Source of the DNA: Stegostoma tigrinum
Lineage: Eukaryota
Length of the DNA stretch: 64,000 nt
Direction: 5' to 3'
NCBI RefSeq assembly: GCF_030684315.1
Contig: NC_081360.1
Location: forward strand, 43,967,424-44,031,423
In this document: positions 3,201 through 59,100 of the stretch, piece after piece
Layout: every line of letters begins with the position of its first letter
Position numbering within the stretch: position 1 is the stretch's first letter
Made by a program: the position numbers and the translations under genes
Notes under the pieces: generated by a model
Database searches by the model: none
What the model was told of the DNA's origin: nothing
Seen by the model: only the letters and a program-made list of their open reading frames with translations

Positions 3201-6200
3201 AGTAAAAAGAGAAGGCACATGGAATGTCACCCTTCAAAGGGAATGGAGTGTAAACATAGGGGAATCTTGCTAAAACTATAGAAGGTGCTAGTTATGTCAC
3301 ACCTGGAATAATGTGATCAGTTTTGATTTGCTTTTATCTAAGAAAAGATATACTGACATTGTCAGCAGCCCAGAAAAGAACTGAGGAGAGATTTGACTTG
3401 TACTCATTAGAATTTAAAAGAATGTGAGACAACCTTATTGAAAGAGACAAGGTTCTTTGGGAGCTTGACAGCATAGTTGTGGAGAGGTTGTTTCACCTTG
3501 TGGGAGAAAATTGGACCAGAGGGGATAACCTCAGAGTAAGGGATCATATGTTTAGAACAGAAATGAGGAGAAATGTCTTCTCTTAGAGATTGTGTCTAAT
3601 TATTTATCTCAGAGAGCTATCGAGGCTGGGTCATTAATTATATTGAAGGCTGAGACAGATTTTATACAATAAGGGAATCTACAGTTATGGGAAAATGATA
3701 GGAAAGTAGATTTGAGGGCTATCAGATCAACCATGATCTCACTGAATGGCAGGGCAAACTTGTTGGTCTGAAGGAACTACTTCTGCTTCTAATACTTATG
3801 GTCTAAGTCTTGGACTAAGTGTGGAACTTGAATGAATTCCGAACAGTTGATTTTGTTTCAGTCCTTTTAACAAGCTCAATGGTCCTTCTCAACAAAAGTC
3901 AAGAACTCCTCAATGTAATCAAAGAGTTCAAAGTCCCTGGGCCGAAAATACATTCTGAACTAACTCATGGGGCTCACAGCAGCTGTGTAAAGATTGAAAG
4001 TCTAATGGAGCTCCTGCAGGACAGGAGGAGACAGCTAGAAGAGCAATCGTATCGTCAAAGGCTGGACCTGGAGCAAATTTTACAGATCTATCAATGGGAC
4101 CAGCAGGTAGATAAGGTACGGACCAAATCTGTGTTATTACCATGAAAATAATGGCTTTGAAATAATGGCATTCACCGGAGAAATAGCGTTATAATCTCAG
4201 AGAAAAACTGTTTGGTTGAGCACGTTACCTATGACCGTTTACTTTTGAAGAATACATAATACTGTCAAAGTAAAGATAGTGGCTAAGAATAGTCTTCAGT
4301 TTTATGCAATACAAGCTGATATCACAATACCAGCAAAAAAACCCATCTATGTTCATGTCCAGAGAATGTTTTTGTTTAAAATGCTGCCGTCATAACTTCA
4401 GTGAGAACTGGGCTTGACATCTTGTCAGAGTGATAAGAACAAACATTGACCTAGATCTTCTGGTTAGCAGCATACTGGGTGCACTGGCACTGACCACAAT
4501 ATTTTCTGTGCCCTGGTGGACCTACCCCTTTATAGTGGGACCTCCAATCCTGACTGAAGCAGAAATGGTGTCGTTTCTCCAAGGTAAGCCCAACGAGCTT
4601 AGCAGGATTGAAAGAAGGAGTGGAGATGGCCCTTTTACTAGCAGTCATATTAAGGTAGGTTTGTCAGGGTCTCAAGTTTTTTTGTGAATAATTTTGTTAG
4701 GGAATGGCTGTGTGCATGGGTGAGTGAATGATTCAGTGGGGGGGGGGTCATGAGTGAGTGATTGTGAAGGAATGAATTGGTGGGTAAATGGGTGAGGAGT
4801 GAGGAACTGGATGAGTCCTTCAGTAAGTGAATAAATTAGTGAGTGAACAGTCAGAGCCGTTGGTCAGACAAGCATGGTGTGTGGGTTCAAGGAGTATTAA
4901 TTTCAGATTGGAGGGTAGGAGACGGGGTATTGGTGAAAGAGAGGGTTCTGTTGGGAGCTTGCTCAGATTGCAGAGGTGATACGGATGGCTATGTGCGTGG
5001 GTGAGTGAATGATTCAGTGAGGGAGTGTGAGTGAGTGATTGTGAAGTGGATTCAGAGAGCGTTCATGAGAATTGTCCCAGGATTGAAGGCCTAACATGTG
5101 AAGAATATTTGAGGACTCTGGGTCTATACTTGATGGAGTTTAGAAGGATGAGGGGAGATCCAATTGAAACTCACAGAATACTGAATGGTCTGGACAGAGT
5201 GGATGTTGGGAAGATGTTTCCATTGGTCGGAGAGACTAGGGCCCAAGGGCACAGCCTTAGAGTAAAGGGAAGACCTTTTAGAACGGAGATAGGAAGAAAC
5301 GTCTTCAGCCAGAGAGTGGTGAGTCTATGGAATTCACTGTCGCAGAAGGCTGTGGAGGCCAGGTCATTGAGTATGTTTAAAATGGAGATAGATAGGTTCT
5401 TGATTGCCAAGGGGATCAAGGCTTACAGGGAGAAAGCGGGAGAATGGGTTTGAGGAACTTATCAGTCATGATTGAATGGTGGAGAAGACTAGATGGGCTG
5501 AATAGCCTCGTTTTTGCTCCTATGTCTTATGGTCTTATGGATGAGTGGTTGTGGTATTTGGTTCAGTTACACTTTCTAATGACTAAGTTAGACCAAACAG
5601 TAACAACATAACATTCTCAAGGTAAGTCCTGCATAAATAAAAACAGAAATAACTGCAGATGCTGTGAATCAGGAACAAAAACAAAGTTGCTAGAAAAGCT
5701 CAGCAGGTCTGGCAGCATCTGTGAAGGAAAAAAACAGAGTTAACGTTTCAGGTCCAGTGACCCTTTTCCTTCTCAGATGCTGCCAGACCTGCTGAGCTTT
5801 TCCAGCAACTTTGTTTTTGTAAGTGCTGCATATCTCAGTCTTGGACCCCGAAGCTGTTTAGGGGATCATGTGTGCAAGGCCCAAGGCTGTGTAAATCAAC
5901 CAAATGGAAGTTTAAACTACCCAGGAAATTATAGGGTATGTGCATATATCAGGATTTCTGCAGGATCTTCACAAATCTGATCCCAGCTCATTTTATTATG
6001 GACAGGTCAGAATCCAGACTGAAACCTGGTTTCATAGATCTTGTTTTGTTCTGCTTTTAATAGTGTGGCCTCTTGGTGAAACAAACACACAATAATGTTG
6101 CAGATTTTGTTTTAAAAATTAAAACAGAAGTTTACTAACCAAAAGATAGACAGTTAGAATGGATAAACCAAAATATTTACTCAACATTAATTTAAGATTT

Positions 6201-9200: not shown

Positions 9201-11119
9201 TATCTCCACAATAGCTGTAAGTTCACACCCTTATTTGTGTCATTAATTTGTTTATTTTGTTCCAACTACTCTGAATATTTAAACCAAGAGCCATTAATTC
9301 TGCCCTTTTGCTATTTTATAACCATATGAGCCTAATGGCTGCTGGCGTCTTTGAAAATATTTCTCCCTTTTTCTGAATCTGTTGTTCTCATTTGACTAAG
9401 ACTATGTCCCTGTAGAATGCAAAGCCACATCCTTGCCACCATTAACACATTCTGGCTGATAATTGGCAGCCTGAGACTGTTACTTACATGGAGGCTGACT
9501 GCGTAATTCTGAGGCGCAGAGGGACCTTGCTGTTCTGGTGAATGAGTCCCAAAAAGTAGAGTCCAGCTGCAACACATATTCAAGATGGCTAATGGGATGT
9601 TATCCTTTAAAAAGAGAGGAATTAACATAAAAGTAATGATGAGGAGTAGCAACAGAATAAACATTTCTCTGTCCACCGATTTTACCATATCTGCCATGTA
9701 TTTTCATCAATTTCTGTTTTAGTTTCAAATTTCCAGCATCTGCAGTTCTTTGTTTTTTAAAAGTGATGATGTTATGCTTGAGTCAAACCGGAGCAATTCC
9801 TGAATACTACATACAACTTAGATCTCCTTATTTATAATAGGATGTAAATGTAGTGGAGACATTTCAAAGGAGTTTTAGTCAACTGGAATGAGGAAGTTGT
9901 CTGATGAGGATGGGTTGTACAGGCTGAACTTGTTTCTATAGGAGGTTAGAAGACTGAGAGGTGTCTTGAGTGAACTACATAAGATCCTGAATGGATTTTA
10001 TCAGGGGATGTGGAAAAGATGTTTCTTTCAGCGGGTCAGTCCAGAACAAATCGAAATACTCACCCACCCACCAGCACAGTAGTGAGGGGAATTTTTTTTC
10101 AGAGTTTTGCAACTTTGGAGATTTTTGTCTCCATGTGATGGAGGCTGTGTGATTGAACATTTTTAGGACAGATGCCTTCTTTTTAGGCAAAGGGATCCTG
10201 GGTTATCGGGGATGGTTAGGAAAATAGAAATTGAAACATCAACAGATCAGTCATTGTCTTTTTGGAAGGCCAAACCAGCTTGAGATGTCAAATCATCTAC
10301 TTCTGCTCCTATGTACATATGTGTTTTCAAATACACAGAGTTCAGTTAGACATATGAGTATGGTCACATATTAATTGAGAATTTTTCTCTCCCTTGCCAT
10401 CTGATGTTGAATATATTCCATTGATAAGTAGCATAAACATAGGATTCAAGGTGTGTATACCTTGTAAATCTCAAAATGGGATCATAATGCCTAATACTGC
10501 TATGTACTAGCCCCATAATTTATAAAATCAAAATTGAGAGTTGGAGTGATAGCTATTCAAAAAGAGAGTATATTTGATTCGCGTCATTTAAAAATACATT
10601 ACACTTTACATATGTGTTGAATTTCTTCAAGGCATACTTTACACATCATCTGAAAAATATTGCAGACAATCCTTTGTGAAACTGCCTTTTGGATGAGATA
10701 CAAGCTCACTCAGGACACTTTAAATAATATACAATTTAAATGGTTCCCATTTGTATCTGCCTGAATTAGATTGTATAAAATCTCACTTGGTTATATGGTT
10801 GTTCAGATTTGTTCCCACGGATGTTCTATGAGAACTTAGTAATTAGAACCTTAAACTTTTTTATTATAGGAATTCATGTCTGTAGCTGAAAAGTTAAAAG
10901 CTGAGGCTGATGAAATTTTGCTGATTGAAGACTTCACTGATAAAGAACAGATGGCAGTTCAAAATCAGAAACTGAAGCTGATGTGTGAGCAGTTCTGGCT
11001 ACTCATGAAGGAACGAGAATTATTGCTCCAAGAGGCCCATGAATTTTTTAATAGTGCAAATAAGGTTAGTTCCTAAACTACATCAGCATTGAAATTTTAC
11101 TACAAATTATTTTATACAC

Positions 11120-11151
<32 letters not shown>

Positions 11152-14100
11152 TAATCTATATCTTTCTGCACAGCATGTATTTTCTTAGTCTATCATCTTG
11201 AGTGAGGCTGAGATTCCCACTTAGAATTGAAAGAGGCATGCTGTAATAGCTGTTACTACCTCCTTCATAGTGCCTGACGTGGAAAACAAATATCATGCAT
11301 CTAAAATTATTGACATGATTAATGTATCATTCCTGGTGGGATGAGAGAATAATATGTTATTCTTTTCACCTTTGTGAAACACCTCTTCAAGTGTTGTGCT
11401 AGATTGTGGCATGCTACTTTATCTTCACCATGTCCTCCCTTGCTCTGTTTAGAATAAATGTGGAGTATTTCCCATTGTTATACAGGTTGAACAGATGTAG
11501 CTACTCCCCATGCCTCCTAAAATGCAGGACAGCTGGACACTACTTCAAGGAGGAGCCTTAGCCCTTAACAGGCTAAAGGTTGAGTTACACATTTTTCTTC
11601 TCAGGAGAGACATTTAGTTGTTGCAAATGTTCACTTTTGGACCTATTACAGGCATATACGAATCCAAAAACACACATGAACCATTGTGCAGTAGTTGTTC
11701 AAAATGACTTGGATTTGCATGTATTATTAGGTGGAATTTAAAATTTAAATTAAATGAGAAAGAAAACCTGGCCCATGTCAAATTTCACATCCCTCAATAA
11801 GATGATGCTACAGTCTGCATCTCCCAAGGGAGCTAGGACTCTTTTTATCATCCCCCAGAAAACCCCAGAATATGGACCCAGATCGCAAAGTTCTGTTGAG
11901 GCTTTTCTTCATGCTTTCACCAGGATGGAAGCAAGGGTTACAAACTTCAATAGAAACAACAAATTATACTGGATACAAGAAGCGAAAAAGGATGCGTGGC
12001 AAATCTCTCTGACGAAGTGCCTAGGCCCAAAACATCAGCTTTTGTGCTCCTGAGATGCTGCTTGGCCTGTTGTGTTCCTCCAGCTTCACACTTTATTATA
12101 TTGCGTGGCAAATGGATTGGTTCAGCTCTTACTGTGAGCATTAAGAAACACTTAGAGCTGTTTTGTGCCTGAACTAGGAATAATGCAGTCTTGATGCAAG
12201 GTGCCAGAAATGGAAGCAATTTTCTGTATATCCATAGACAAGAATTCTACACATTGATAAACATGAAAATACATAACAAATGACTCATTTCCTTAAAAGT
12301 GTATTGCAGTAGCTGCCTGACAAAGAGAATAAGCCTTAGGGTAGATAGGCAGGAGTTTTATTATGCGCATGTGTTTTGCATTGCAGGATTAGAAACAGAA
12401 GTTTAAATCTACTGATGCAATTTTAGAAGTACTGTGAGCTGTGAGTAGGTCGCAATGAACTTCAGGAGGGCAGAAGTAGGCTGTTGGATTGGGTTGTCAA
12501 GAGACAGATGGAGTTTAATGCAGTGAGATGTGATATGATTTGGTAAGAAAAAAGTGGAGAGGTAAGACAGAATAAGGGATACTGGTTTAAAGAGGTAGGG
12601 GCGGAGGTTCCAAGGGATGTGTCTGCCTGACCATTGGGGTGAAATTTCCTATATGTGTGAAAATCATTAAAAATGGCTGCACAGATTAAGAAAGCAATTA
12701 ATAAAACTAAAGGATCTTGGACTTTAAAATGGGGACATAGAATCCAAACACGAGACAGTTTTGAGAAGCCTGATGAACCATCACTGATGTAGTGTCTCTT
12801 GTTCGGAGTCCATGCAAAAGGAGGCATGTGAAGGCATTAAACAGTGTGCAGGAAACATTCAAGGAAATGGTTGTAGCAATGAAGAGATTCATTAGAGGAA
12901 GATGGGTATGTTGTTGGAGAAGAAATGATTAAGACAAGATTTGATAAAGGTGTTCAGACAGTGACAGAGTGAATGGGAAGAAACAATGCTCCTGGCAGTG
13001 CACAATCCAAAAGTAAAGGATGTCAATTTAGGGTGATTGCTACAAGAAGCAATAACAGATGAGGAAACTTTTATAACTCAGTGAGTGGTTGAGATCTGGA
13101 ATGTGCTTCCGGAGAATGTAGTGGAGGTGGCTTCAACCAAGGCTTTTGAAAGGAGATTGAAACATAATTTAAGGAGAAAGCATTTCCAGAATTTTGATGA
13201 AAAGGTGGGACATGGGACTAGATCTGAATGTCTTGCAGAGAGCTTGCACATGTGTAATAGATGGACTCCTGCACAATCAAACAAGCAAACTTGGATATTG
13301 TTTCTCTACTGCCATCTTGTGGATTTTCATTATAATTATTGAGTTAACAGATATGTGTACAGTGGTTTGCAATCTCATTACAGTGCATCTAGAAACGTTC
13401 CGACTTGGAAGAGTGTGTGATTTTTAATGCAAAATGAGTCCTTCACATAGCCTAATTTACAAGATTACATGATACTTGCAGATGAGAACAAATACTCAGC
13501 CAATTATAGTCCATCCTCTGAAAGAGCTGACAGTTGCATATAATTATATATAACCAATTCAAGGGTTATTTTCAGTACGACTCTATTTGAAAGTTGATCA
13601 TAAATGTTGATTGCTGCCTGCTTAGAGATAACTTTCCTGATACCTGTCCTAAAGTTTTGTTTTACTGTTTTCAATTTATGGTCCTTTACTTATAGACTCA
13701 CATGGTTTAAAATAGAATTTCAGGTTTACTTTTCCAATACCATTTACCATCTTGTATATCCTTTCATTATTCATCTTCAAATCACTTCCTTTTCAAACAA
13801 ACAAGCTCAAGCTTTCCCACTAGGAGGAAAAGGCAAATCAAAGCTGGATAGGCTGGGACTTTGTTCCGCTGGAATGTAGGAGCTTGAGAGTTAACTGTAT
13901 AGAGGTTTATAAAATGCTGAATGGTTTGTCCCTTTTCCCTTGGATGACGGGTTTCAGGAGGAGGGGATACGTTTTTAAGGTGAGAGGAGAGACATTTAAA
14001 AAGGACACGGGGACAAATTGTTTACACACAGGGCGGTTCGCGTGTGGAATGAAGTGGTGGGTGTGGGCACAGTTACAAGGTTTAAAAGACACTTGGATAA

Positions 14101-17100
14101 GTACATGAAGAGGAAAGGTTTGGAGCTTTATGGGCCAGGAGCAGGCAGGTGTGAGTACTTTAGTTTGGGATTGTGTTTCAAATAATCTGATTGGACTGAA
14201 GGGTCTGTTCCCATATTGTGTGACTCTATGACTATGGCTCTGTAAGTTATCTGTAAAGTGGGTTGCCATTTTGCAATTTCAAATATATGACCATAAGACA
14301 TAGACCAGGTGTAGGCTGTTCAGTTTCTCAAACTTGCTCCATCATTAAATAGGATCATAGCTGATCTGACATTCCTCATGTTAACTTTCCTTGCCCCGTA
14401 ACCCTTGATTTCGCCACTGGTCACAAATTATTCCAACTCAGCCTTAAGTATATACAAGAATTATGTTAGCATATGAACAGCGCGTTGGGCTATGCCAGAC
14501 AGCCCTCGAACCAGCTCTGTCATTAACAAGAACATTGCTGATTCAGATTATAATCTCAAATCCATATTTGTGTCTAAATGTGCCAATGAATTGTCTGGAG
14601 TTCGATTTTCCCTTTTCTGACCTGAAATTAAGCAGGACCTGAAAAGCGAAAACATGAGAAAGAGATATGTTCTTGTCTCTGCTCCACAGTAAATGAAAGA
14701 CTGAAAAATTGCCATGGAGTGCAGTGGAGGCCAGGACGTTGGATGCCTTCAAGGCAGAGATCGACAAATTCTTGATCTCAGATGGAATCAAGGGCTACGG
14801 GGAGAGTGTAGGGAAGTGGTGTTGAAATGCCCATCAGCCATGATTTAAATGGCGGAGTGGACTTGATGGGCTGAATGGCCTTACTTCCACTCCTATGTCT
14901 TATGGTCTTATATTTATACTGCATACAGTTCCAGACTTTGGCCATCATGAATATCAAGGAGCATGTCTTTACACACTAAGCCTTTTCAGGTCCTGTACTT
15001 AGAATAATTACTTTTTAATTGTTCCAGTTTGATCTTAGGTATATAAATCCAATGTTAGATGGCAAAAAGAATTTCCAGGCATTATGTGGACCATAGTGTA
15101 ATTTCACAGTTAGGATTGAATCTCATGTTTAAAATGCATGAGGTCAGATATGTTCTGGTTTGGAAAACACTCAGGTCATGCTGCAACTGTGGATGGAGGA
15201 ACTGAGTTAACTACTTTTCACAAGAAAGTTCATCAACCTGAAACACAAACTCTGTTTCTTTTTCTGCAGACACTCTCTGGCCCCCATATTTACAGCATTT
15301 TCTGTATTGTGTCATATTTCCAGTATCTGCAGTATTTTGCTTTGCTGCATTCCAGTTTGACCCGTTTTGCTGATTTTTTTTTACATGGAGCTTACCCATA
15401 AAGGCCCAACAACTCCAATTAAATGACCAGCCAATTTCAGTTTTATAAATGGTTTTTTGAAGGGTATAATTAAAGGGCTGTAGCTCTTGCTTAGTTAGCC
15501 AAGTTGGATCATGGAAGGAAAGGTCAGAATAGCTTTAATCCATTAGAACTTCAAACACTGCTAATGTATCAAATAATCTTTAAATATTAAAGGCCTTCTT
15601 GTTGGTCTCAGTTTTAATCATTGTGACCTTTTCAGAAGTGTCCTTACACACCTCTGAAGCAGGTGGGACTTCAACTTGTGGACTCCTGGCCCAGATGTAG
15701 AGGCACTGCAACTGTGCCATACGAGCTCCATTAGCTACTAAAGCTCATGAATTAATGTAGAGCTTAACAAAACGATCCAACCCCACAGCAAATATATAAA
15801 TATCAAGCAACATTCTGTTATTGTCAACATTAGTTGAGTGCTTTTGGTTTAAAATGTAGTTGTAGGTACAGTCATGATCCAAATTACAAGATGATTAAGA
15901 AATGTTATGTTTTCGTCAACAGGGATTTGATATACTGGGAGGAATAGAAAGTCATCTGAAACACCTTAATTTAAAGTCTCTGTGCTTGACAGAACTCTCT
16001 AAAGAACATGCTTCTGTGTGTCAAGCAATCAAAGATGCAACTTCAGATGCTCTACTGAAGGGACACCTGCTCTTGAGTAAAATTGACCCACAAAGGTAGG
16101 GACTACACACACCAGTGAATATTACTCAAAGAATGCCCAGAAATTCCACCTTGTGAAACCCAGTGACAATTCTTTACAGATGCATAGCAATTTTAACACC
16201 TTTCTTCTAATATGGTAAAATGTTTGCAGGTTCTTTACTAGAGAATTAGCAAACAAAATGTTTGGTACTGAGCTACATGTGATAAGAGGACAGGTGAGTG
16301 AAAACTAAGTCAGAATAGTTATTTTTCTGGTGTATTCCAAAAGAAGAGCGAGATGTAGAATTGCAGATGATCCAGAAAGCAACCTAGACAGCTGAAGACA
16401 TGGCTGTCACTATCTAAATAGCTAACATAGCAGATATACAGGGATCATGAAAACATGGAGGAGGAATAATTGGTTAGTCAGATTTTTGTTTTTCTAATTT
16501 TCATCCTTTATGCCTTTAGCCATGTCACAGACCGTCTAATTATCATCAAGATGAGATTTGTGCTTATGCAATTGGTGGCAAATGTTTTGTTCTCCCACGT
16601 AATTAAATCTGGACATACAATATCGTAAAATCTTTTTGTTTTTGTATTTTTTGAAAATCCTGGACGGAAATGAAAGAGACCCTTTTTATAAAAAAAGTCT
16701 ATTGTTAAGTGTGGTACAGTTCTGAAATTGAAGTGACCTCACACCTATTAGAATCATTGTATAAACCAATATTTGAACCAGCAATTATTGAAATTAAGGT
16801 TGCAAATGATTTGGAGTCAAGGAGGATGTGCAGGTACAGCTTTTGTTGTCAACAAGAAGTTGATTGGTCTATGAACAAATGACCAGTTATCATTGACAGA
16901 ATTTTTTTCCTGCCAACAACCATGTGATTTTTTTTCTCTGGTAACAAGAAATTGGAGCTGGGTACAAATTACAGTGAGAGAGAAGTGTTTAGTTTTTCCC
17001 TAGCTTGGGAGTGGCATCTCTATTCTCTACAGTTACAGCACATAATAAGCATAAGGAAACACTGTTTATCTTTTCTGTAACCATTGTTGTCAGTTGTGAA

Positions 17101-41081: not shown

Positions 41082-41112
<31 letters not shown>

Positions 41113-47100: not shown

Positions 47101-50100
47101 CATTTATTTCCGAGTTAGGATTGTGGGAGACTTGAAGGGGGCTTGCAGGTTGTGGTGTTCCCGTGTACTATTCAGCTTAAGAATAACATGAGAAGATTGT
47201 TCTGTCGTTGGGTGATGAGGATAAGTCTTGTCAGTTCAAAACTTTTAATCTATTGCTAGAAAATCCGGCTGAATGAAGATTGGACTTGGTTTGATTTATT
47301 GAAGTAGCTCAAAACAGGAAGGTTTGAATTCATAATTCGCATTTCATAGCATTCTGATACCATGCATTAAATTAATGTAAATTCAATTATTCTATTTTTA
47401 TTACCTTTGTCACAAAGCTGATGTATTTAAGCTGCTTGTGAGTACATTCTGTCCCTATTCATGAGTACGCAAACTGAGGCATTACTTGTGAAAATACTGT
47501 TGTAAATGAATGCAATAGCTTCTTGCTGAAATTTCATTCATTGCTTTTTTCAGAGAAATGAAAGCTTGAATTTAAATTTGCAACAGTCAGTAAATATAGT
47601 TGAAAATACGATTGATCAACTAAACAAGAGAAACCTTGCTCTCACTGATCGGTGGACAAATTACCAACTTGATTTAAATCAAATACAATCTGTCAAAAAG
47701 CAATGGAAGAAATTCAAAGAACAACTTAAAAAGGTAAGATATAGCTGAACAAATGATAATTGAAACATCATAATCATTACTTATTAAACTTTTGTTCGCT
47801 TGCACATAGCAGCTTTCTTCAATTATTTTTTTCATTGGCTTGTTCATTAGTGTCTGGAAATGTGTTATCTCTGGAAATATTGTGTAACTGCAGTAAATTA
47901 TAATATTTTATTCATTTGTACATTTGCGCTTGGCCATGCTGGACTCGCACTCCTCACAAGGACTTGATTGTCACAGCTTTGGGCTTGACCTCACTGCTTT
48001 ATCATCCTTTCAATGCCTTGCAGTCTGCTCCTGCTCTCTCCAACACCGCCCCAACCCCCAGCCTCCCCGGGCAGCCTGCTCCCGCTCCTGCTTCCTTCCC
48101 CGCCACCCTCCTCCCTGGGCTGCCTGCTACAACTCTTACATCCGTCCCCACCAGCCTCCCTGGGCAGCCTGCTCCTGCCCTCTCTGCCAGTTGCCCCAGA
48201 CTCCATTTGGAAGCATTGAGAGGGTCTAACAACTGAGTAGAACCTCGTTATACTTTGGCAGAAACACCCTAGAGGATGGTCTTTCCCCATTGCACCTTAG
48301 CAGGTGTTGCCCCACACTTTAGTCTGCCCCTCAGCACGTAGTCCTTGGCTTTGGAAAGTGCCAGTCTGTAACACTCGGTCGAGGTCAATTCTACACTGGA
48401 CGATCCACAAGTTTGATGCAGAGCTTCTTTCACTGAGTTAATGGTCTTCCAGCTGCAGTCAATGTTTATCTTCGTGTGTGTGCCAGGAAACAACCTGGAG
48501 ACAACAGAGTTCTGCATCATGGAGCTGCTCAGGGACACACCTTGACAAAAAACACTGCATCTCTCTCCAAACCTCCTTGGCAAAAGCACATTCCAGCAGG
48601 AGATGTGATCAGTCCCTTCACCAGCACATCAGCTGCGAGGGTAGCATATGGTGGCACACAGAGTCTGCTCGTGCACAAAGACAAACAGTGACCTTCTCAC
48701 CACCATGGCCAAGCTACATCTTGGTGCTTATTGGAACGTTCTGGAGATGATGCATTCTGCCAAATGGCTTTGATAGTCTGCTCAGGGAGCCAGGCAACCG
48801 GATTTATCCTCTCCTTTTCTCACAGGGGCTCAAGGATGCTATGTGCTGACCACTTCCTGATGGACTTGTGGTCAAAGGTGTTTTGTTTGCAAATTTTCCC
48901 ATGAGCAATAGGTGATGCGGAATGTCCCAATTACTTGGAGCGTTCTGCAGCACCAAGGCCAGACCTATCCTTCGCAACACTAGGGAAGGTTGGACCTTGG
49001 TATTTGTGTCAAAAGAGTGACTAGAAACAGTGAAAGAATGTCAGGATGGTGTTTGAGTAAGAGGGAAATTTACAGGTTGTGCTGCTCCTTCCCTTGTCCA
49101 TCTAAGTGATTACTGTTGAGAGTTTAAAAAGTGCTGTTGAAGAAGCCTTGATGAGTTGCTATAGTCCAACTTGCTGTTAGTAGACGCTGCTGCTATTATT
49201 TGCTGCCGATTTGGAATTAGCGGTGATGTGTAAATGTTTAAGGTCGAGGATGGGTGATATGAATGAAGCGGGTTCCATTTTCTTGGATGATGTAGACATT
49301 CTTAAGTGTTGATGGAGTTGCATTCATTAAGACAAATAATGACGACCTTATCATATTCCTGGCCCTATGTAGTGTATATGGTGGACAGGCTTTGGGGAGG
49401 CCAGACATGAATTACTTGCTATAGATTTCCCAGCCACAGTACTGATGTGGCAGGTCCAGTTAAATTTCTGGCTAGTAGCCACCCTTCAAGAGGTTGACAG
49501 TAGGGCATTCAGAAGCAGTAATGTTATTGAAATTCCAGGGGAATTTTTTTTTGTCAGTCTGACTCAACCATGCTGTTATGAATATATATTCATATTTAAC
49601 TTAAAAATCCATTATTGGGGCCACCAATATTGGGGAATAACCTCCTGACCTCATCCTCACCGATCTGCCTATTGATTGATGCATCTGTCCAAGACAATAC
49701 TGGCATTGTCATCATTTCACGATTTCACTAAGTCATTTCACTATTTTCATGGAGTCTAAGTCTTGTCTAAACACTGTATACATCCTCCATTATCTTGTGT
49801 GGCACTACCATACAACTAAATTAAGAACAGATCTGGTAACTCAAAACCCAATATTCATGGGATACTGTGGTCAACACCAGAACTGTGTTTCAGCACAACC
49901 TGTAAACTCACGGCCAGCATATTACTCACTCTTCCATCTCTAACTTTGGTTCAATGAATAATGTGGAAGGATACACTGGAACCAACAGCAGCCAACCTTG
50001 AAAGTAAGCTTGACAACCTAAGCAAAATACATTTGAGGGCTACAGAAATGTCGTACTGGAAAAGTGGCCTATTGCTATATGCAATCTCACTACTACGTTA

Positions 50101-53100
50101 CATTCTAAGAACAAATGGTAAAATAGGCTCTCGGTCCTCCAACTTTATATTAATGACTTAATTGCAAGTTAGTTTCTGGTCATAGGAAGCAACAGATTCA
50201 GCCAGCTTCTTTATTCTGTTTCTTTTTGCCTCATTGCCTTTGTTGTTTTCTATTATGTCTGTTCTGGAAACTTACTAATTGTTCCACAAGCAATTGTAAA
50301 TACATTTTGAGATAGATTTATAGAAGTGAAGTATTGTTCAATTATTAGTGACTTTTAGAAACTAAATGCAAACAAAACTGAAAGACTAATCTGAATTCTT
50401 TTGTTCAGACAATTCACTGTTTGAAGATGCTGGAAGATGACCTTATTCCACAGTTTAGAATTGACCTGGGTTGCAACCTTGGGGCTATTGTGGAGCTGCA
50501 AGATAATTTCAATAAAGCAAAACCTCGGTTACAGGTAAGGACTTCTACAATTCTAATAATTGCAAAGCTAAATTGGGGCAGCACGGTGGCTCAGTGTTTC
50601 GCACTACTGCCTCACAGTGCCAGGGATCTAGGTTTGATTGCACCTTCGGCAACTGTCTGTGTAGAGTTTGCACGTTCTCCCCGTGCACGGGCTACCTGTA
50701 TTGACAGTGCCAAATTACCCTAGTGTTCATAGAAGATCATATTTCATAGAATCCCTATAGTGTGGAAACAGGCCCTTCGGCCCAACAAGCCCCTCAGAGC
50801 ATCCCACCCAGAACCTACGAACTCACCTAACCTACACAACCCGGAACACTATAGGCAGTTGAGCATGGCAAATCCAACTAACCTGCACATCTTTGGACTG
50901 TGGGAGGAAACCAGAGAACCCGGAGGAAACCCACGCAGACCCAGGGAGAATGTGCAAACTCCACACAGACAGTCACCCAAGGGTAGAATCGAACCTGGGT
51001 TCCAGGAGCTGTGAGGCAGCAGTGCTAACCTCTGAGCCACCGTGCTGCTCCAATAGGGCCATGTGCAGATTAGGCAGGTTATGGGGGATGGATCTTGGTG
51101 GGATTTTCTGAGGGTTAGTGTGGACTTGTTGGGCTGAAGGGCCTGTTACCACACTTTAGGGAGCCTATAATTCTATGATCTATGATCTAATGAACATAAT
51201 GATCCTGATGGCTCTGAAAACTACTCTTGTACAATTGAGGAAGGTTGTAGTTTCATCGATCTGTCTGTGTGTTGTTAATTGAGTTGCTAGCTATGGTACT
51301 ATTGGCTTTAGTGCCTGCAGTAGTGTTATAACCAGGCAAAGTTTTCTGATTTTCCTGATTTTCTTCTTTTCCCATGCTTCATTGGACTATAAAAGGTTTT
51401 TGAGTTTTTAAAAGGATTGCTGTTTACCAGTTTATCGAACATGAATTTAATTCTGTGGAGAAAGAAATGAGCCATACAGGTGTTCTTGAATAAAGCATGT
51501 AAGGAGTTATATTCATGACAAAGTTCAGTAAAGTAAAAATATTACCACATGCTGAAATGTATACATGCATCCCACATTGCATCAAGACACATAGAGGCTT
51601 TCCCCAATCATGCAAAATAAGAAACACAACTTATAGAGTGTTGAATGTTGAACTTGGCTGCGAAATGAATATTGAGCATGACAGACATAAGATCAATTTA
51701 AAACAGAAAGGTTTTTTCATTGTGCAGGTATTTGATTTTCAACTGAAGAAGACACTTTCCACAAGTATGACTGATTTCTCTTTTCTCTCGGTGACTGCGA
51801 TGTTGATGTTAAATCTTCCTTTAAAAGTCTGTGTTTGCAGGAAGAAGGCTTTCTGGCTGATTTTTCAAGCTAAAAGCGGGGCTCAAAACTTTGAGAAATG
51901 TTTCAGACAGAAAGGCGTACACTCAGTGACTTTTGTCCTCTCCCTGATACTCCAAACTCAAATGTTCGTGTCAAACATTGCATCACATGACCTCTTTTCA
52001 TGTTGTTCTGACATTTGAAGGAATAAAGAGAACTGATTTGTCTCTCGCATCAGCTATTTTTTCATAGTTGAGATGGTTAGCTTTTGTAATGCCCCAGACA
52101 ATACTCTTGAATGGTCTATCTTCCATCTTGTTGAGTTGGAAGGAGTTGTTCACACCTACAGGGGTGCCATTTCCTTGTTAGTCTGCCTGTGGACTTCCCA
52201 TTGCCACTTCCAAATTGGCATCTACATAGATTCAGCATCCTTTGTTTAGCAGAAGTGTCTTTTTAAAAAAAAGTTCTATATGTGACCAGTGGAAGAAATT
52301 ACAAATTAATATTGCAAGTAACAGATTTTTGTGACACTGTGAAGAGAAAAATTATGCAGAGTTCCATTCCTACTTGCTAGAAACTCATTTGAACAGGGCA
52401 TGTTTACACAATTTTTCACAGTTTGGAGTAGTGTCTAAGCTCAAATATAAAGAATGGTTACAATGACAAAGCACAGCAGGATATCAGGAGAGGCATGGTG
52501 AAAGTGCTGCAGACTGTAATTCTTGTCCCTCGTATTAGAGTACGAAATATGAGAAAAGATGTGTTGTAACGTGAAATGTGGATAAATGTACCCTGACCAA
52601 CCTTGACCAGTTTCCAGTTATCCTTTTTAACTCAAGAGAGAGACAGGGGGGACAAAAGTCAGTGAAAGGTCCAGCACAGTCTTATCAAAAACTTTATTAA
52701 GGAAAATCAACACTTACCAGACTCTGAAAACAAAACATGCTGGAAATCCTTGTGGCTCAGGCAGCATCCATGGAGAAAGAGCAAGCGACCGCTTCAAGCC
52801 GAGATGACTCTTCATCAGAGCAAGATTCCAGCATCTGCAGTAATTTGCTCCTACTGCTCTACTACCGTACTTTAATTGAACTCTATCAATTGCAGGATTC
52901 TCCAGGAAAAGGTCTTAAATCTACACTTGCCATCTGCTTCTGATACGCGCTTCTGAGGATTTTCTGCATCCTATCCACATGTCCTTATCACTGTGTTTGA
53001 ACTGTTTGCCTGAAAGGGACTGGTCATTTGCACTCAATAAGCCTGGGACAATGAGGGTTGGCTAATATTTCAGGATCTGCAGTTGTTGATTAGGGTTTCC

Positions 53101-56100
53101 CCTCTCATCTAGGGGGCTGGTTCTGGTCTTTGGGTCATCTCACAAAGGCTTGTCACTCTGAGTCTGATCTTTCTGACGATGTCTGCCATGAGGTACAGGA
53201 AGCTGGTGATGCTCTGCAGCTTGGTTCCTAGTCGAAGGTTCCCTCTGGAGACTCCTTTGAAGGAGGTGCAAGGGCAGAGTGAGCTATCACTCCGGGTTGT
53301 CCCTTTTATCCCCATTTTATCATCCTTCCTGAAGAATTCAAGTGAGAGCAATAAGATCCAATGAAGGTCATAGAACATGGTTATGAACCTCCAACTATCA
53401 AGTGCTGTCATTTTCATGCTGTGCCTCTGGCCTCCCACTGAGCTGGGAGTCACAGGCCTGCGTGATATTTTTCTTAAAAAGCAGGTTTACTGGACATGTA
53501 AATAGCAGGTCATTCTGAAACAATGGGGCCATTAGCTCTGGGCCAGGAAGTTCCAGGCCTATATGGTTTTGATGGGAACTTGATTGTCCAAGGCCTGGCT
53601 GCCTGAACCCTGTTTGTTCTGACTCAGCAGTTTACAAATTGCAGATTCCACTAGCTTTAAAATTGGCTTGCATATTTTGAGCTTTTACCCATGCTTATGA
53701 AAAAAAACCAATATTTATGTAACAATCCTGGAAGTCATGGCTCACCTGACCACAAATGCCAGAAATTGCAATGAAATAAGTGACCAAAGAACCTGTCTTA
53801 GTAATGGTAGCTGAGGTACAAATGGAAATATATCAACCAGGATACCTAGGAAAATTTGATGCTCTTCTTCAGATAGGAAGGTGGGATTTTTTTTATGGCT
53901 AACCCAGAAGGACAATCAGGGTCATAGTTTAACATTTCTTTGTACAAGCCGAAAGCAATTTTAAACAGCAAGTTTTTCTTCATAGAATGTGTGATCGATT
54001 CATGGAATGAATTCCTAGGGCAAATGATGGAGATGAAAACTCTGAAATCATTGAATTGGATCCTGTAAATGGGGAGTTTTAAGGCCTTTTATGGAGGATA
54101 AACTGAGATGGATTGAATTATCTTCCTCCTCCATAAATATCTTGTAATCAATTTTCGAGATTATTCCAGATGATTAGTAGTCAACACAGAAGTATTTTCA
54201 TACATTTGTATTTATCATTTATATACAGGGTTTGTCACAAATGTTTCGACTCATTTTGAATAAATACTGAAGTAAAATTTGATCTGATCTCACCATGTGC
54301 ATCTCATATAAATTCTAAGAAATATTATACATATTTAGTGAAACATAGTTTGAATATAATAATCATAAGATTAAAACACATCATGAAATTATCATCAGAG
54401 GTTAGTTTTGAGCTGTAACGTGGTAACTTACTGCAAGGTGGCATGAATTATTAACTCCACTTTGGTGCTTTTTTTTATCTCTAGCAGTTGAATGCTGAAG
54501 TGGAATACAGAATAGCAATAGCTGAACTTTTGGCGTTGAAAGGTGTTTCCCTAAAAGAAAGAAATGAAAAAGTCATGGAGTTACAAAATCTTCATCAACA
54601 AGTTAAGAATAAAATAAAAGAATATGAAATAATTTTTCTTAAGACAGTTAAATTTCATAAGACTACTGAAGAGGTATGTGCTCAAACTTTTAAAAATTTG
54701 AAGTGTTCTTGAAGACGTTTGCATGCTTCTTGCTTCAGCCATTTTATCCTGTGTGTCTAATTTTGATGAATTCAAATGATATCAGTTGACTACCCCATTT
54801 CTAAATCTTTCATGTGACATATTCTATTGTAAACTGTCACCACATTTCTAATTTGGCTTTTATGTTACGATTGTTTTGTTCTTTTCCAGATTAGTATAGT
54901 TGCATTGACATTTTGGTGAAATAATGCTCACAGTAATAGGAAAAAGAGAACAATTGAGCTAAACTTTTCCATTTGAGAACTCTACCAAAATGTAAATTAG
55001 TGAGTTTTGAGAAGATTTGTAGCTCAGGTTGAGGTTCTGGATGTGAGTTTGCCCGCTGAGCTGGAAGGTTCGTTTTCAGACGTTTTGTCACCATTCTAGG
55101 TAACATCATCAGGTGATGGAAAAGAACAGGAAATGACATCACCAACACAGGAAATGACATCACCAACCCAAGGAAACCTAAACAGATAAATAGAAAGCGG
55201 GACATAACATCAGCGCTTCGTCGGAGGCTCACTGATGATGTTACCTAGAATGGTGACGAAATGTCTGAAAACTAACCTTCCAGCTCAGCGAGCAAACTCA
55301 CATCCAAAATGTAAATTATTGTCAGATGGAGTGAAAACATGGGAATGGTCTACTTCTGCTCCTAATTTGTATGTTCATATGTATTCTTCCATGTGATCAG
55401 TTACCTATCCTATTTGGTGGCATAATTGTTGGTGATCCTCTGAAGATCTCCTCAGGCTCAAAAAAACAGCAAAAACTGTACAATCCATATAATATGGCTG
55501 GCTACATATTTCTGGGTGTCTTAGAGGTCAGTAGCAAATGCTGTTGCTTTGCCACTGTCTGCAACATTCAGGCCTATGAGAATAAGCACCGCATTCCTAT
55601 GGTGAGACAACATTTCTAATTTGGGGTCATCAAGCTTGCCACAGTTTCGTGAGGAAGAGCAAAATTTAAAGACTTATAAAAATATAGAATGTGCGACATA
55701 TCTATAACCAATGGTATGTTTAAGACACTCATTACCCAAAAGAGAGCAGGCTGTGCTGAGATCAGATGCTTACTTAGTCAACATTTAGGGTCTGAAAACA
55801 ATGCTTTAGTCCTTGGATTAGGCAAGGACAGCTTGATATTGTGGCTGAGAGTGGGTCAGAAAAATTATATTAGTATTTTGCCTGCTTAACAATCTCATCA
55901 TGGACAACAACAAAATACTCTGTTTCCTTCAAATATGATTTTTCCAACAATATCCTAGCCATCCTCCCAAGTTCCACTCTCTGTAACTCTGCTGTTAGTA
56001 TCCCAATTTGTCCAAAGTGTCATTGACCGACTTTAGAATTCCTTTTCCTTTCCAATCCTTCCTTGGCCTCAGCTCTCTTACACTCTGTAATGTATCTCAT

Positions 56101-59100
56101 TCCTACAATGCTACTGGATCTTTTTACCCGACAGTCTCAGCTCCAATTTTTAATTGTACTTTCAACTGTTCGAGGCCTAAGTTCTGGATATCCTGCCTTC
56201 TCCCACTTATTCTGTCTCTCTGGATAGTTCTGAGGAAGGGTCACCCAACCTGAAACATTAACTCTGATTTTTCTTGACAGGTGCTACCAGACCTGCTGAT
56301 CTTTTCCAGAAACTTCTGTTTTTGTTATCTGCCTCTCCCCCGCTTTAAGATACTACTTTAAACCTATGTTGTTCATCAAGCTTTTGGTCATCTGCCCTAA
56401 TATCTCCTTCATGGCCTTGATGTCAAAGTTTGTTAGTTAATGCCTTTGCAAAAACAGTTTAGAATATTTTACTGCATTAAGGGTGCTGTATGGATGCAAG
56501 TTGTTACTGTTCAATTAGGCTTTTAGTTTGGATTTGGGAATATTTACACAGAACTGCAAGTTTGTTTTCCTGTCTATATTTTGTAGTGACAGGTTGCATA
56601 GATTCTGAAACCATCATATTTACACCACCTTCTGTGGGAAATTACATTTACAGATATATATTGTATTATATATTACAGAGACATATTAAAACATAGGAAA
56701 ATTATTTTACTTTATTCGGAGCTGGGTTTTGCAGGGTTTTGTGGAAGGTTGCAGGCAACACCCAGTACCATTTATCTTTCTGAATCTTCTTGGGTTCAGC
56801 TCATAGCACAAGCACGGGTTAAAACAGGAATTCTAAAGCTGTGCATCTGTCACATATTGCTTCACCATAGGCTGCTCTGTATGACAACTCCCCTCTCCTA
56901 CTTGTCCAACTCCTGTTCAACTGGGTAACTGGGCTTTTAATGGACATTTAACTAATAGCTGCAGCTGAACATAAGGATATATAATTTTGTATTTGTGGAG
57001 TGTTACTAAATGTTGCTATTAAGATTATTACTAAATTTTTGAAAGCAAATTCTGAAAAAATCTTTGTTTTCTTATGATACTTCAGCCTTTACATTCACAG
57101 CGTACGGAAGTCTTAATCTTTATATTCCTGTATGTTTTTTTTTGAGTGAGCTTATTTTAGTGCTGTGCATTTCCTGGCCAGCTGTTCGTGAAAATTCTCT
57201 AATGCAAATGGCTACTTGGAGCGCTTGACACCAAAGCTTCACACTGACAACCCCTATTAAACAGCTCCACAATCAATTGCACAGTGAGATTGTTAGCAAG
57301 GTTTTCTTCAGGATTAGCAGTTAAGAATTGATGTTTCACCATAGACTGCAAAATCAGGCCACCTCTGGTAAAGAAACTGTCACCAATCTTTGGCGGTCCA
57401 AGGAAGCAGGAAGATTGATTGAATGCAGAATATGTATCTGCAAAAATTTTGCAACAGTGACGATATGTCTTTTGCTGGAGTTGCTTTAGTCTTACTACTA
57501 TAATTTAAGAGCATGCATGTTGCCATTTGTGCAAGATCAAGTGATGCCACAGATTTTCATTTACATTATAGCCTGTTGGCTGCTAGCATTTTGGTGCACT
57601 CGTGCCATTCTCACTTGGTCTACTGAACCTAAAAGAGCTTTGCAATGTTTCCTGTGGAATGTAATCCAAACAACCATTCCTGCATGATCTGATTTATGAG
57701 CGATGACTTTACATAGGAGGGTATTACATTCCCAAGCCTTCTGGAGAGCATCTACCACACTTGTCCTGACAAATTGAAAGCTACTCTGTGTTGATGGGTA
57801 TTCATGGCAAATGTATTACAAGTATATATCTGTTAAAAGACAGTATAATGCTTGACATGCTGCTAACACACTGCTGATTTTATCTCTGAATCTCAACCAT
57901 TCATTGAGAGATCAAAATTTGTCGTCCTGCTTAATTAAAGCAATCCACCTTTTTGAAACCCCATAAAACTCCATGTCCCACTGCTAACATCTCAAATGTC
58001 CCCACTAGGAGTCATCTTTCATAACGCCTTTTACAATACAGAGAAGAGAGGAAGGGTCACTGACCCTAAACGTTAACTCTGTTTTCTCCTCCACAGATGC
58101 TGCCAGACTTGCTGAGCTTTTGCAGCAACTTTGTTTTTGTTGTTGTTGTTGGTGGTGTAAAGAGAACCACCTGAGTCTGCAAGTTAAGCCAAGTTGTACA
58201 GAATAGCCAGTAAAACACAAGACACTAACATAAGCGTTCAAGAAAGAGTGAATATGAATTCTTCCTCAATACAAAATGCCCCTAATTCCCTTATAATCAC
58301 TAATATGTGCCAACCAGGAGATATGTCAGTAGACTGATCTCTCTGTCTAAGCAAGTCTCACTGAATAAGGGTGATGCACACGTGAGTAAAGTGAAAACAA
58401 TCGGAAATATCTCCAAACGCAATTCAAATTTGAAAAGCCCCGGTGTCACCTTGAGATAGTAAGAACTACCAATGCTGGACTCTGAGATAACACAGTGTGG
58501 AGCTGAAGGAACACAGCAGGCCAGGCAGTATCAGAGGAGCAGGAAAGCTGATGTTTCGGGTGAGGACCCTTCTTCAGAAATGGCTCTGAGCCCCATCGGA
58601 GGAAAGATTCTTTCAACATCCAGGTGCTCATGTCTCTGCAGGATCTGCTGCATTGTCGGCTGATGGTGCATTTCCACTGAAAAGGTATCCTCACTGTGAG
58701 ATCATCATAGTCTCTCATACACATTGCTGGCATTTTACATTTTAATTGGAATCTCTTGGAAGTGAATAAGAAGAAAGAAGGCAAAAATGGCAGCCACTTT
58801 CTGTTCCATCATTGCCATGGTTAAAATTCCTCCTTGTGGCAGACAGGTGCCCGATCTCTTCCAACTGTTGGCTGATTCTTCCAAATGCAGTTGATTGATG
58901 ATGGACTGAATGGAGGTAGCAAGGCACTTACAAAAAAAAAGGCACCAGTAAAGCCCTATTTTACCAGGTATTTACAATCCTTCCAGGAGCACACAGGAAG
59001 CATGGAGTGATGGAGGGTATGCAAAAGCAATGCAGTGAAAAATTGGCCATTAGATTCAGAAGGTAAAATGTCAGGTCTGTGATCCTGTCTGCAACATGTA

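Follow-up and report, generated by a model that had tools for sequence, protein, structure and literature searches.

Penelope-like end sequences in a 64-kb stretch of Stegostoma tigrinum DNA are probably separate truncated insertions of ordinary elements

We analysed a 64,000-nt stretch of Stegostoma tigrinum contig NC_081360.1 (the window) that is rich in short insertions consisting of Penelope-like element (PLE) terminal sequence, a pseudo-long terminal repeat (pLTR) carrying a minimal hammerhead ribozyme. Self-BLAST and alignments place this end sequence at 21 window loci, 19 short and two long, and 10 of the 21 are head-to-head pairs of inverted arms. These are probably separate truncated insertions of ordinary endonuclease (EN)-bearing PLEs, with the short length of most copies set by reverse transcriptase (RT) running off the RNA 5′ end close to position -4. 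The evidence lies in where the arms end 5′, in two fixed 3′ ends and in a layout common to insertions spanning 60 nt to 3 kb. The elements are ordinary and represent no new mobile class; what they provide is possibly a useful mechanistic clue. Throughout, +1 denotes C3 of the CUGAUGA hammerhead core and negative offsets lie 5′ of the core. In the reference copy, on the minus strand, C3 is 18286 and the predicted cut falls between +28 and +29 (18259/18258).

The parent of one end family and the second long insertion are laid out as follows.

18160..20958 (-): 5′-truncated parent, family A, with an 815-codon open reading frame (ORF) for RT, Cys linker and GIY-YIG, and a 3′ pLTR with hammerhead
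Parent landmarks (-), predicted from sequence: C3 18286; cut 18259/18258; TATA-like box at -34; tail 18160-18193
20950..21124 (+): second, inverted arm of the parent insertion, a copy of ORF part 19713-19878
38327..40153 (both strands): long head-to-head insertion; (-) arm tailed, starting at -1263; (+) arm tail-less, starting at -410; junction overlap of 3 nt; 15-bp target-site duplication (TSD)

The uninterrupted 815-codon frame at 18511-20958 (-) matches Pfam RVT_1 (E 2.5e-5) and GIY-YIG (E 5e-4), both under the curated cut-offs, and carries DKG and YIDD motifs, two Cys between the GIY and YIG positions and a C-x4-C-x2-C linker ahead of the GIY-YIG domain. The Neptune clade has a CX2-5CxxC linker between RT and EN, and Nematis has the linker too (PMC8557442). 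Judged by these motifs, the parent is an EN+ Penelope-like element with the Cys linker of Neptune/Nematis. A protein search returned 49 relatives, the best from the bamboo shark Chiloscyllium punctatum (73-75% identity), with no full-length shark copy among them. The parent end is 94-98% identical to the arms of family A hairpins, and the short insertions (stubs) are therefore PLE ends. The first-pass annotation had assigned them to PLE pLTRs with minimal hammerheads, and the parent ORF in the window indeed carries the same end. A pattern search found the hammerhead core with helix II at 18286, 38456 and 40061 and in families B, C, E and F. The assignment draws on this pattern and on the published features of such ribozymes (PMC4209133), because Rfam reported no hammerhead in the window, only microRNA-shaped hairpin matches below gathering scores. 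An AUG lies within the core at 18283-18281 (-), 7 nt past the inferred start, and opens 13 codons followed by a stop.

The end sequences fall into six groups, A to F, with E (45860) and F (55000) represented by one locus each; the earlier count of at least 14 insertions from about six families thus holds. Short loci occur at 19 per 64 kb, or about 300 per Mb. A TSD was accepted when its score exceeded the best of 150 random pairs; 10 of the 21 loci have one, with lengths varying from 11 to 17 bp. The hairpin at 5636/5647, earlier thought to have none, is among them, with a 14-bp TSD containing one mismatch (5622-5635/5819-5832). The hairpins recognized at first pass (34216, 40838, 42747, 55000 and 5647) are real, with arms 94-100% identical (34215-34325, 100%; 40872-41035, 96%; 42746-42887, 94%; 55035-55309, 94%; 5675-5820, 96%). 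About 8 of the 30 arm offsets were placed by eye on diverged copies, and arms below about 30 nt would escape detection. The window assembly has a gap of 143 N at 25641-25783, and four sequencing runs cover 95-97% of a 9-kb window stretch. The short loci are the following.

5636..5820 (both strands): family B hairpin; (-) arm tailed, starting at about +7; (+) arm tail-less, starting at +39
9665..9757 (+): single tailed arm of family B, old; 5′ end placed by eye close to +38
12005..12101 (+): single tail-less arm of family A; starts exactly at -4; 12-bp TSD; without extra G
15225..15343 (+): single tailed arm of family B, old; ambiguous 5′ end at about +17
27839..27935 (+): single tail-less arm of family B, starting at -4
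34216..34358 (both strands): family A hairpin; (-) arm tail-less, starting at +40; (+) arm tailed, starting at +36; one extra junction base; 17-bp TSD
37839..37984 (both strands): family C head-to-head pair; (-) arm tailed, starting only at +83; (+) arm tail-less, starting at -4/-3; 16-bp TSD, two mismatches
40838..41036 (both strands): family A hairpin; (-) arm tailed, starting at +12; (+) arm tail-less, starting at +6; overlap of 2 nt; 15-bp TSD
42438..42602 (both strands): family B pair; tailed arm (-) from about +10; second arm ribozyme only, about +4 to +34; TSD within chance range
42742..42921 (both strands): family C hairpin; (-) arm tail-less, starting at about +47; (+) arm tailed, starting at about +4; 11-bp TSD
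43493..43599 (+): family A single tailed arm, from +20; 7-bp TSD, within chance range
44150..44298 (+): family D arm extending upstream of the ribozyme, without a fixed left edge; bases at -40 to -30 are TATA-like
45860..45960 (+): family E insertion; core at 45881; 12-bp TSD; first 20 bases of unassigned origin
47044..47102 (-): family A single tail-less arm, from about +36
52724..52857 (both strands): family D head-to-head pair; tail-less arm (-) from -3; second arm (+) tail only; arms without overlap
55000..55303 (both strands): family F pair; (-) arm tailed, starting at +1; (+) arm tail-less, starting at -119; 15-bp TSD; tail 35-41 nt
56226..56327 (+): single tail-less arm of family B, starting at -4, with as many as 5 more bases unassigned
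58048..58141 (+): single tail-less arm of family B, starting at +3
58453..58580 (-): single tailed arm of family C, starting at -3/-4; TSD not found

Seven of the 30 arm 5′ ends lie at -4 to +1, nine at +2 to +25, none at +26 to +31, six at +32 to +47, two further 3′ and six upstream. Expressed as the hazard of ending per nucleotide, this amounts to 10% at -6 to +1, 1.9% at +2 to +25, zero around the cut site (+26 to +31, from 132 nt at risk) and 1.5% at +32 to +47. The hazard upstream is 0.13%, and uniform truncation was rejected. The excess at -6 to +1 over the rate at +2 to +47 has P = 1e-4 for this fixed window and P = 0.027 when any 7-nt window is allowed; six ends fall within two bases (P = 0.007), and with only the families of known upstream sequence (3/8) P is 0.021. 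Families B, C and D, which have different upstream bases, also end at -3/-4. Twenty-two of the 30 arms cross the cut site and six end 7-18 nt behind it. Individual breakpoints had been read correctly to a few bases (40951 is +12, 55112 is +1, 12005 is -4, 37889/90 is -4/-3, 56226 is -4, 58580 is -3, 43493 is +20 and 34269 is +36). Of the claim that 5′ ends fall in or beside the hammerhead, the excess in the ribozyme region stands; the sharp peak, however, lies 1-5 nt before the core and not in the helices. In family A a TATA-like box starts at -34, that is, 30 nt ahead of -4, and the sequence upstream of -4 is a C-rich tract. Transcription may well start near -4; in Penelope and Chlamys-3 the start site is located within the pLTR (PMC8557442).

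Whole-genome contigs were aligned to 18160-18459 at 80% likeness and to 18201-18320 at 92%. Sets X1 and X3 bear the same species label and come from one study, possibly the source of the window; X12 is from another organism, and X21 consists of bisulfite reads, whose depth and joints are distorted by C-to-T change. At 80%, the top listed 5′-side loose end is 18287 (-1), with 889 of 12,198 partly aligned contigs in X1, 905 of 12,204 in X3 and 233 of 2,148 in X12. The flanks at 18287 are mixed (agreement 0.37, median 255 letters), whereas the other listed 5′-side rows are continuing element (agreement 0.63-0.84). At 92%, the 5′-side rows listed, of 1,209 contigs, are 18287 (164), 18290, which is -4 (76), 18291 (44) and 18293 (11); if the listing is ordered by count, no helix II or cut-site position exceeds 11. 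The 18290 row, at the position where the copy at 12005 starts, has a consensus opening with C on the cDNA strand. Moreover, C is the first inserted letter in all four listed joints from 18290, and likewise at 18288 and 18284 (12 of 43 rows shown). An extra G at full-length LINE-1 (L1) 5′ junctions is a cap mark (PMC11702581).

Head-to-tail joints from 18286, 18289 and 18292 to the tail end occur in 12, 15 and 5 contigs of X1 and 14, 14 and 5 of X3; these joints, of 125-133 nt units, are in genome contigs outside the window. The commonest listed joints in X1 and X3 run from the tail end (18160/18162) to the opposite-strand tail-less end (18194-18196), with 61, 40 and 25 contigs and 56, 44 and 29 contigs, respectively; no such tail-to-tail joints were found in X12, X21 or the window. 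They could reflect insertion into an older copy's end, or tandem or circular hairpin units. A 3′-side loose end at 18194, seen in 927 and 942 contigs, is due in part to clipping of C-type tails and serves as support only. Summed depth in X1, 31 M at 18230 and about 9.5 M at 18320-18420, is consistent with a step at the ribozyme; as it cannot rank parts, it is not counted as evidence.

The 3′ ends of the arms are of two kinds. In families A and C, tail-less arms end at +91 to +93 and tailed arms at +125 to +127, a difference of 33-35 nt, which agrees with the fixed inverted-arm end and 33-35 nt tail described at first pass. Single arms exist with either 3′ end, and in every arm this end points outward, adjoining an 11-17 bp TSD. 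Eight pairs combine one tailed and one tail-less arm. In four of them (37839, 40838, 52724 and 55000) the tail-less arm extends beyond the 5′ end of its tailed partner, and in the other four (5636, 34216, 38327 and 42742) the tail-less sequence lies wholly within the tailed one. Overlap between the two arms is slight or absent at 37839 and 52724. The head-to-head junctions, marked by 2-3 nt overlaps or 1-9 extra bases, differ in 10 of 10 cases in the window. Arms within a pair share subfamily letters (52/52 at 34216), and those at 38327 have 28 sites in common against the 18160 copy, with 8 and 19 private. Different pairs, in turn, belong to different subfamilies and have different junctions. 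On sequence grounds the pairs fit two cDNAs, one per target strand, joined at their far ends as by end-joining. The target beside the tail-less or second arm often resembles the template just past the arm end over 2-7 bases (38312-38326/40154-40168, 55304-55309, 21117-21124 and 37983-37984), as if the second primer pairs with the RNA. Because a full element has a pLTR at both ends, whether a stub came from the front or the back pLTR is not readable from its sequence.

The two long insertions, overlooked in the earlier miniature-only picture, share the layout of the stubs, with junctions 410-2670 nt from the ribozyme. The insertion at 18160-21116 consists of a 2.8-kb tailed arm and a 166-nt inverted arm from within the ORF, flanked by a TSD at 18143-18159/21117-21133; the inverted arm ends in 7 of 8 bases common to the TSD, in the manner of twin priming. 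The region 18160-21133 appears to be a young Neptune-type PLE whose ORF-internal inverted arm duplicates sequence already in the long arm, and the junction at 20950-20958 could be a 9-nt self-complementary overlap.

In the explanation that we favour, the capped RNA 5′ end would be placed about 4 nt ahead of the hammerhead core, and RT would fall off there. RT would begin at either of two front-pLTR sites, which lie about 95 and about 130 nt from the capped end. The protein would cut and extend both target strands, starting inside the RNA at the two tail-bounding sites, a behaviour that we infer for a Neptune-type element from Poseidon. A cap-templated C may be added to the cDNA at the run-off end. 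One primed strand would give a single arm; two would give a head-to-head pair once the cDNA ends had been trimmed and end-joined, which would in turn spread hairpin junctions over +1 to +47. A jump from the run-off end to another start site would produce head-to-tail units, as well as long copies where it is made on the 3′ pLTR; RNA cut by the ribozyme may account for a minority of ends. Because the ribozyme sits at the very front of the RNA, it would mainly mark the end point. The stubs are likely dead ends, since they are without the upstream TATA-like box and ORF. Formation through RNA and the notion of stereotyped abortive insertions, both raised at first pass, are supported by these observations.

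We put forward more tentatively, as a reading that may well not hold, that PLEs copy via a strong-stop step like LTR elements. Target-primed reverse transcription on the front pLTR would reach the cap after about 95 or 130 nt and would then have to jump. The stubs, the partial tandems (the pLTR itself), the inverted arms and the one-sided tail would be outcomes of this step, a second RNA end made by the hammerhead in vivo would feed a minor class, and the frequent tail-to-tail joints would record a further, as yet undescribed intermediate.

Several points weigh against run-off at a cap near -4. Only 7 of the 30 window arms end at the peak and 15 end at +2 to +47, and trimming as the source of these 15 is an assumption of the model. 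The extra G is present in none of the seven window arms ending at -4 to +1, one of which is family A. The base at -4 is a C at the edge of a C-run rather than the usual purine start; a pyrimidine-start motif would suit a C at this position, and a sequence barrier would fit family A too. In the contigs, the peak at 18287 arises where C-type copies are clipped when aligned to an A-type reference, and their true ends lie a few bases further. Loose ends are represented by the six best-supported rows per run, with 147 others in the 92% analysis, and not all ends are counted; the share of C is not given, and the first loose letter cannot be G in the contig listing. X1 and X3 are also one study and perhaps the window's source. 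Internal initiation comes from a Poseidon element in vitro only, at two sites 111-118 nt into its ORF (PMC11167929).

One alternative is a structural or sequence barrier, with RT copying from the 3′ pLTR and stalling at the core hairpin (+1 to +6 with +25 to +30) or at the C-rich tract, so that stubs are premature stops. In RNAfold of -4 to +127 the core pairs with the nucleotides ahead of the cut site, and a long stem opens close to +41; half of the window ends lie at +2 to +47, as such stalling would have it. The peak, however, lies behind the hairpin and not ahead of it, families with other upstream bases than the C-rich tract of family A end at -3/-4 as well, and neither the inserted C nor the TATA spacing is predicted. 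We therefore consider a barrier unlikely, and the related first-pass idea that the ribozyme fold guides stalling or template switching fares badly: the peak is just 5′ of the core, after RT has passed the hairpin, and the tail-less arm is the longer one in four of eight pairs. The ends inside (+2 to +25) and just behind (+36 to +47) the ribozyme could still reflect its fold or its cut. Self-cleavage could likewise make the template end, the stubs being run-offs from cut RNA that were then trimmed. Inserted-letter rows start at 18258, the first base past the predicted cut, in 4 of 12 listed at 92% and 2 of 12 at 80%, a joint 18259 to 18160 occurs in three contigs of X1 and X3, and the six window ends 7-18 nt behind the cut point the same way. 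Against this, no window end falls at +26 to +31, the cut site is absent among the listed loose ends of contigs at 80% and 92% likeness, most window arms cross it, and insertion in vitro did not need cleavage (PMC11167929). As the general source of the stubs, cleavage is improbable; it can coexist as a minor route. Several listed joints starting exactly at 18258 in X1 and X3 are a hint of cleavage in vivo, although most of these rows do not specify the type of joint.

The inverted arms might instead come from a single cDNA folding back on itself, or from antisense self-priming as proposed for rotifer Penelope (PMC3846280). Containment of the tail-less arm in four of eight pairs and the shared subfamily letters, with identical arms at 34216, are what such copying would give. 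In the remaining four (37839, 40838, 52724 and 55000), however, part of the tail-less arm has no counterpart in its tailed partner, and the tail-less arm is therefore no fold-back copy; with arms that hardly overlap at 37839 and 52724, and single arms ending at either 3′ site, we regard folding back as quite improbable. Least probable of all, and scarcely to be expected, is an independently mobilised non-autonomous hairpin family, the miniature inverted-repeat transposable element (MITE)-like class suggested at first pass, or a retrozyme-like one. A MITE carries terminal inverted repeats at each of its outer ends and occurs as many copies with a single fixed structure. Here the outer ends differ by the tail, every window junction differs, TSD length varies and the hairpins belong to different subfamilies, and a MITE was rejected. 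The one layout from 60 nt to 3 kb likewise speaks against a separate family. The best listed head-to-head joint in the ribozyme region of X1 has four contigs, at single-copy depth, although contigs under-count hairpins. The high density of short loci would suit such a family, and non-autonomous PLE derivatives have been described as MRC1 (PMC8557442) and as retrozymes (10.64898/2026.07.22.740005). A non-LTR retrozyme array was also discarded, there being no head-to-tail array with a whole hammerhead per unit in the window. Two head-to-head joints in X21 have 351 and 229 bisulfite reads, which could be taken for recurrence; these joints sit where C-to-T change clips the alignment and so pool different junctions, and 18269/18275-18285 were on that account rejected as recurrent junctions. 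A little-converted class of X21 reads at 18194-18287 covers only the stretch common to both arms. Hairpins that snap back and resist conversion would be expected to give this pattern, and loci of this kind would look falsely methylated.

Other features of the window, which is vertebrate-like DNA, include a SINE-like repeat family at 35771-36064, 46375-46532 and 50572-51196, nested in opposite orientation at the last of these, and LINE 3′-end-like repeats at 5114-5543, 14721, 29799 and 33421. Perfect 29-nt inverted repeats at 60789-60817 and 61370-61398, 552 nt apart and with a possible short flanking duplication, may belong to a non-autonomous DNA transposon. Exon-like frames at 3819-4142, 25080-25373 and 27911-28285 (+), with weak Pfam matches only, may form a coiled-coil host gene, in which case the insertions would be intronic. 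Exact-pattern scans for further copies gave no match in either of two viral contig searches, and none and one in two of metagenome contigs; the single metagenome match was a chance match in coding-like DNA. Nineteen matches to a degenerate pattern in prokaryote genomes were also taken as chance.

The origin of PLE pseudo-LTRs, inverted arms and tails, and hammerhead cutting in vivo, are described as open questions (PMC8557442, PMC11167929). With its hundreds of stubs per Mb, a shark-like genome of this kind amounts to a large natural archive of where the reaction ended, and if the peak marks the cap it gives a base-exact start-site prediction. In the open-licence literature we found no description of a start-site peak, cap G, strong-stop step or twin priming for Penelope. 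The one-sided tail, its two ends and the inverted arm are already published as PLE features (PMC8557442, PMC11167929). Indeed, published EN+ PLE insertions, including Adineta Pen2a_Av, have an inverted 5′-truncated copy, a one-sided 30-40 bp tail, a TSD and a hammerhead with a TATA-like box in the pLTR, as here (PMC8557442, PMC3846280). The window differs in that most copies are end-only miniatures, at the density given above, with 5′ ends peaking at one place.

The closest biochemical parallel is Poseidon_Ac (PAc) of Anolis, which in vitro has two fixed 3′ ends bounding the tail and cuts and extends both target strands, as we propose here; PAc is a Poseidon element, whereas the window parent has the Neptune/Nematis Cys linker (PMC11167929). 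We found no treatment of caps, inverted pairs or the 5′ ends of genomic copies in that account. The ribozymes resemble minimal metazoan PLE hammerheads in their core, the unpaired base before helix II, the G-C first pair and the palindromic 15.2-16.2, and pairs of opposite-strand hammerhead motifs 100-700 bp apart have already been noted in Schistosoma (PMC4209133), where we found no mapping of breakpoints. Like the window stubs, non-LTR retrozymes are non-coding PLE pLTR derivatives with hammerheads in vertebrates; they form head-to-tail arrays with a whole ribozyme per unit, whereas the window has single or inverted arms, many with a broken ribozyme (10.64898/2026.07.22.740005). In LINE-1 twin priming, the second target strand primes a second cDNA and inversion junctions have small overlaps, much as in the 18160 insertion (PMC11702581). 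The second L1 primer uses variable internal sites and the arms abut, whereas in the window PLEs it would mostly use a fixed site 33-35 nt from the first, and for this reason the arms duplicate each other (PMC11702581).

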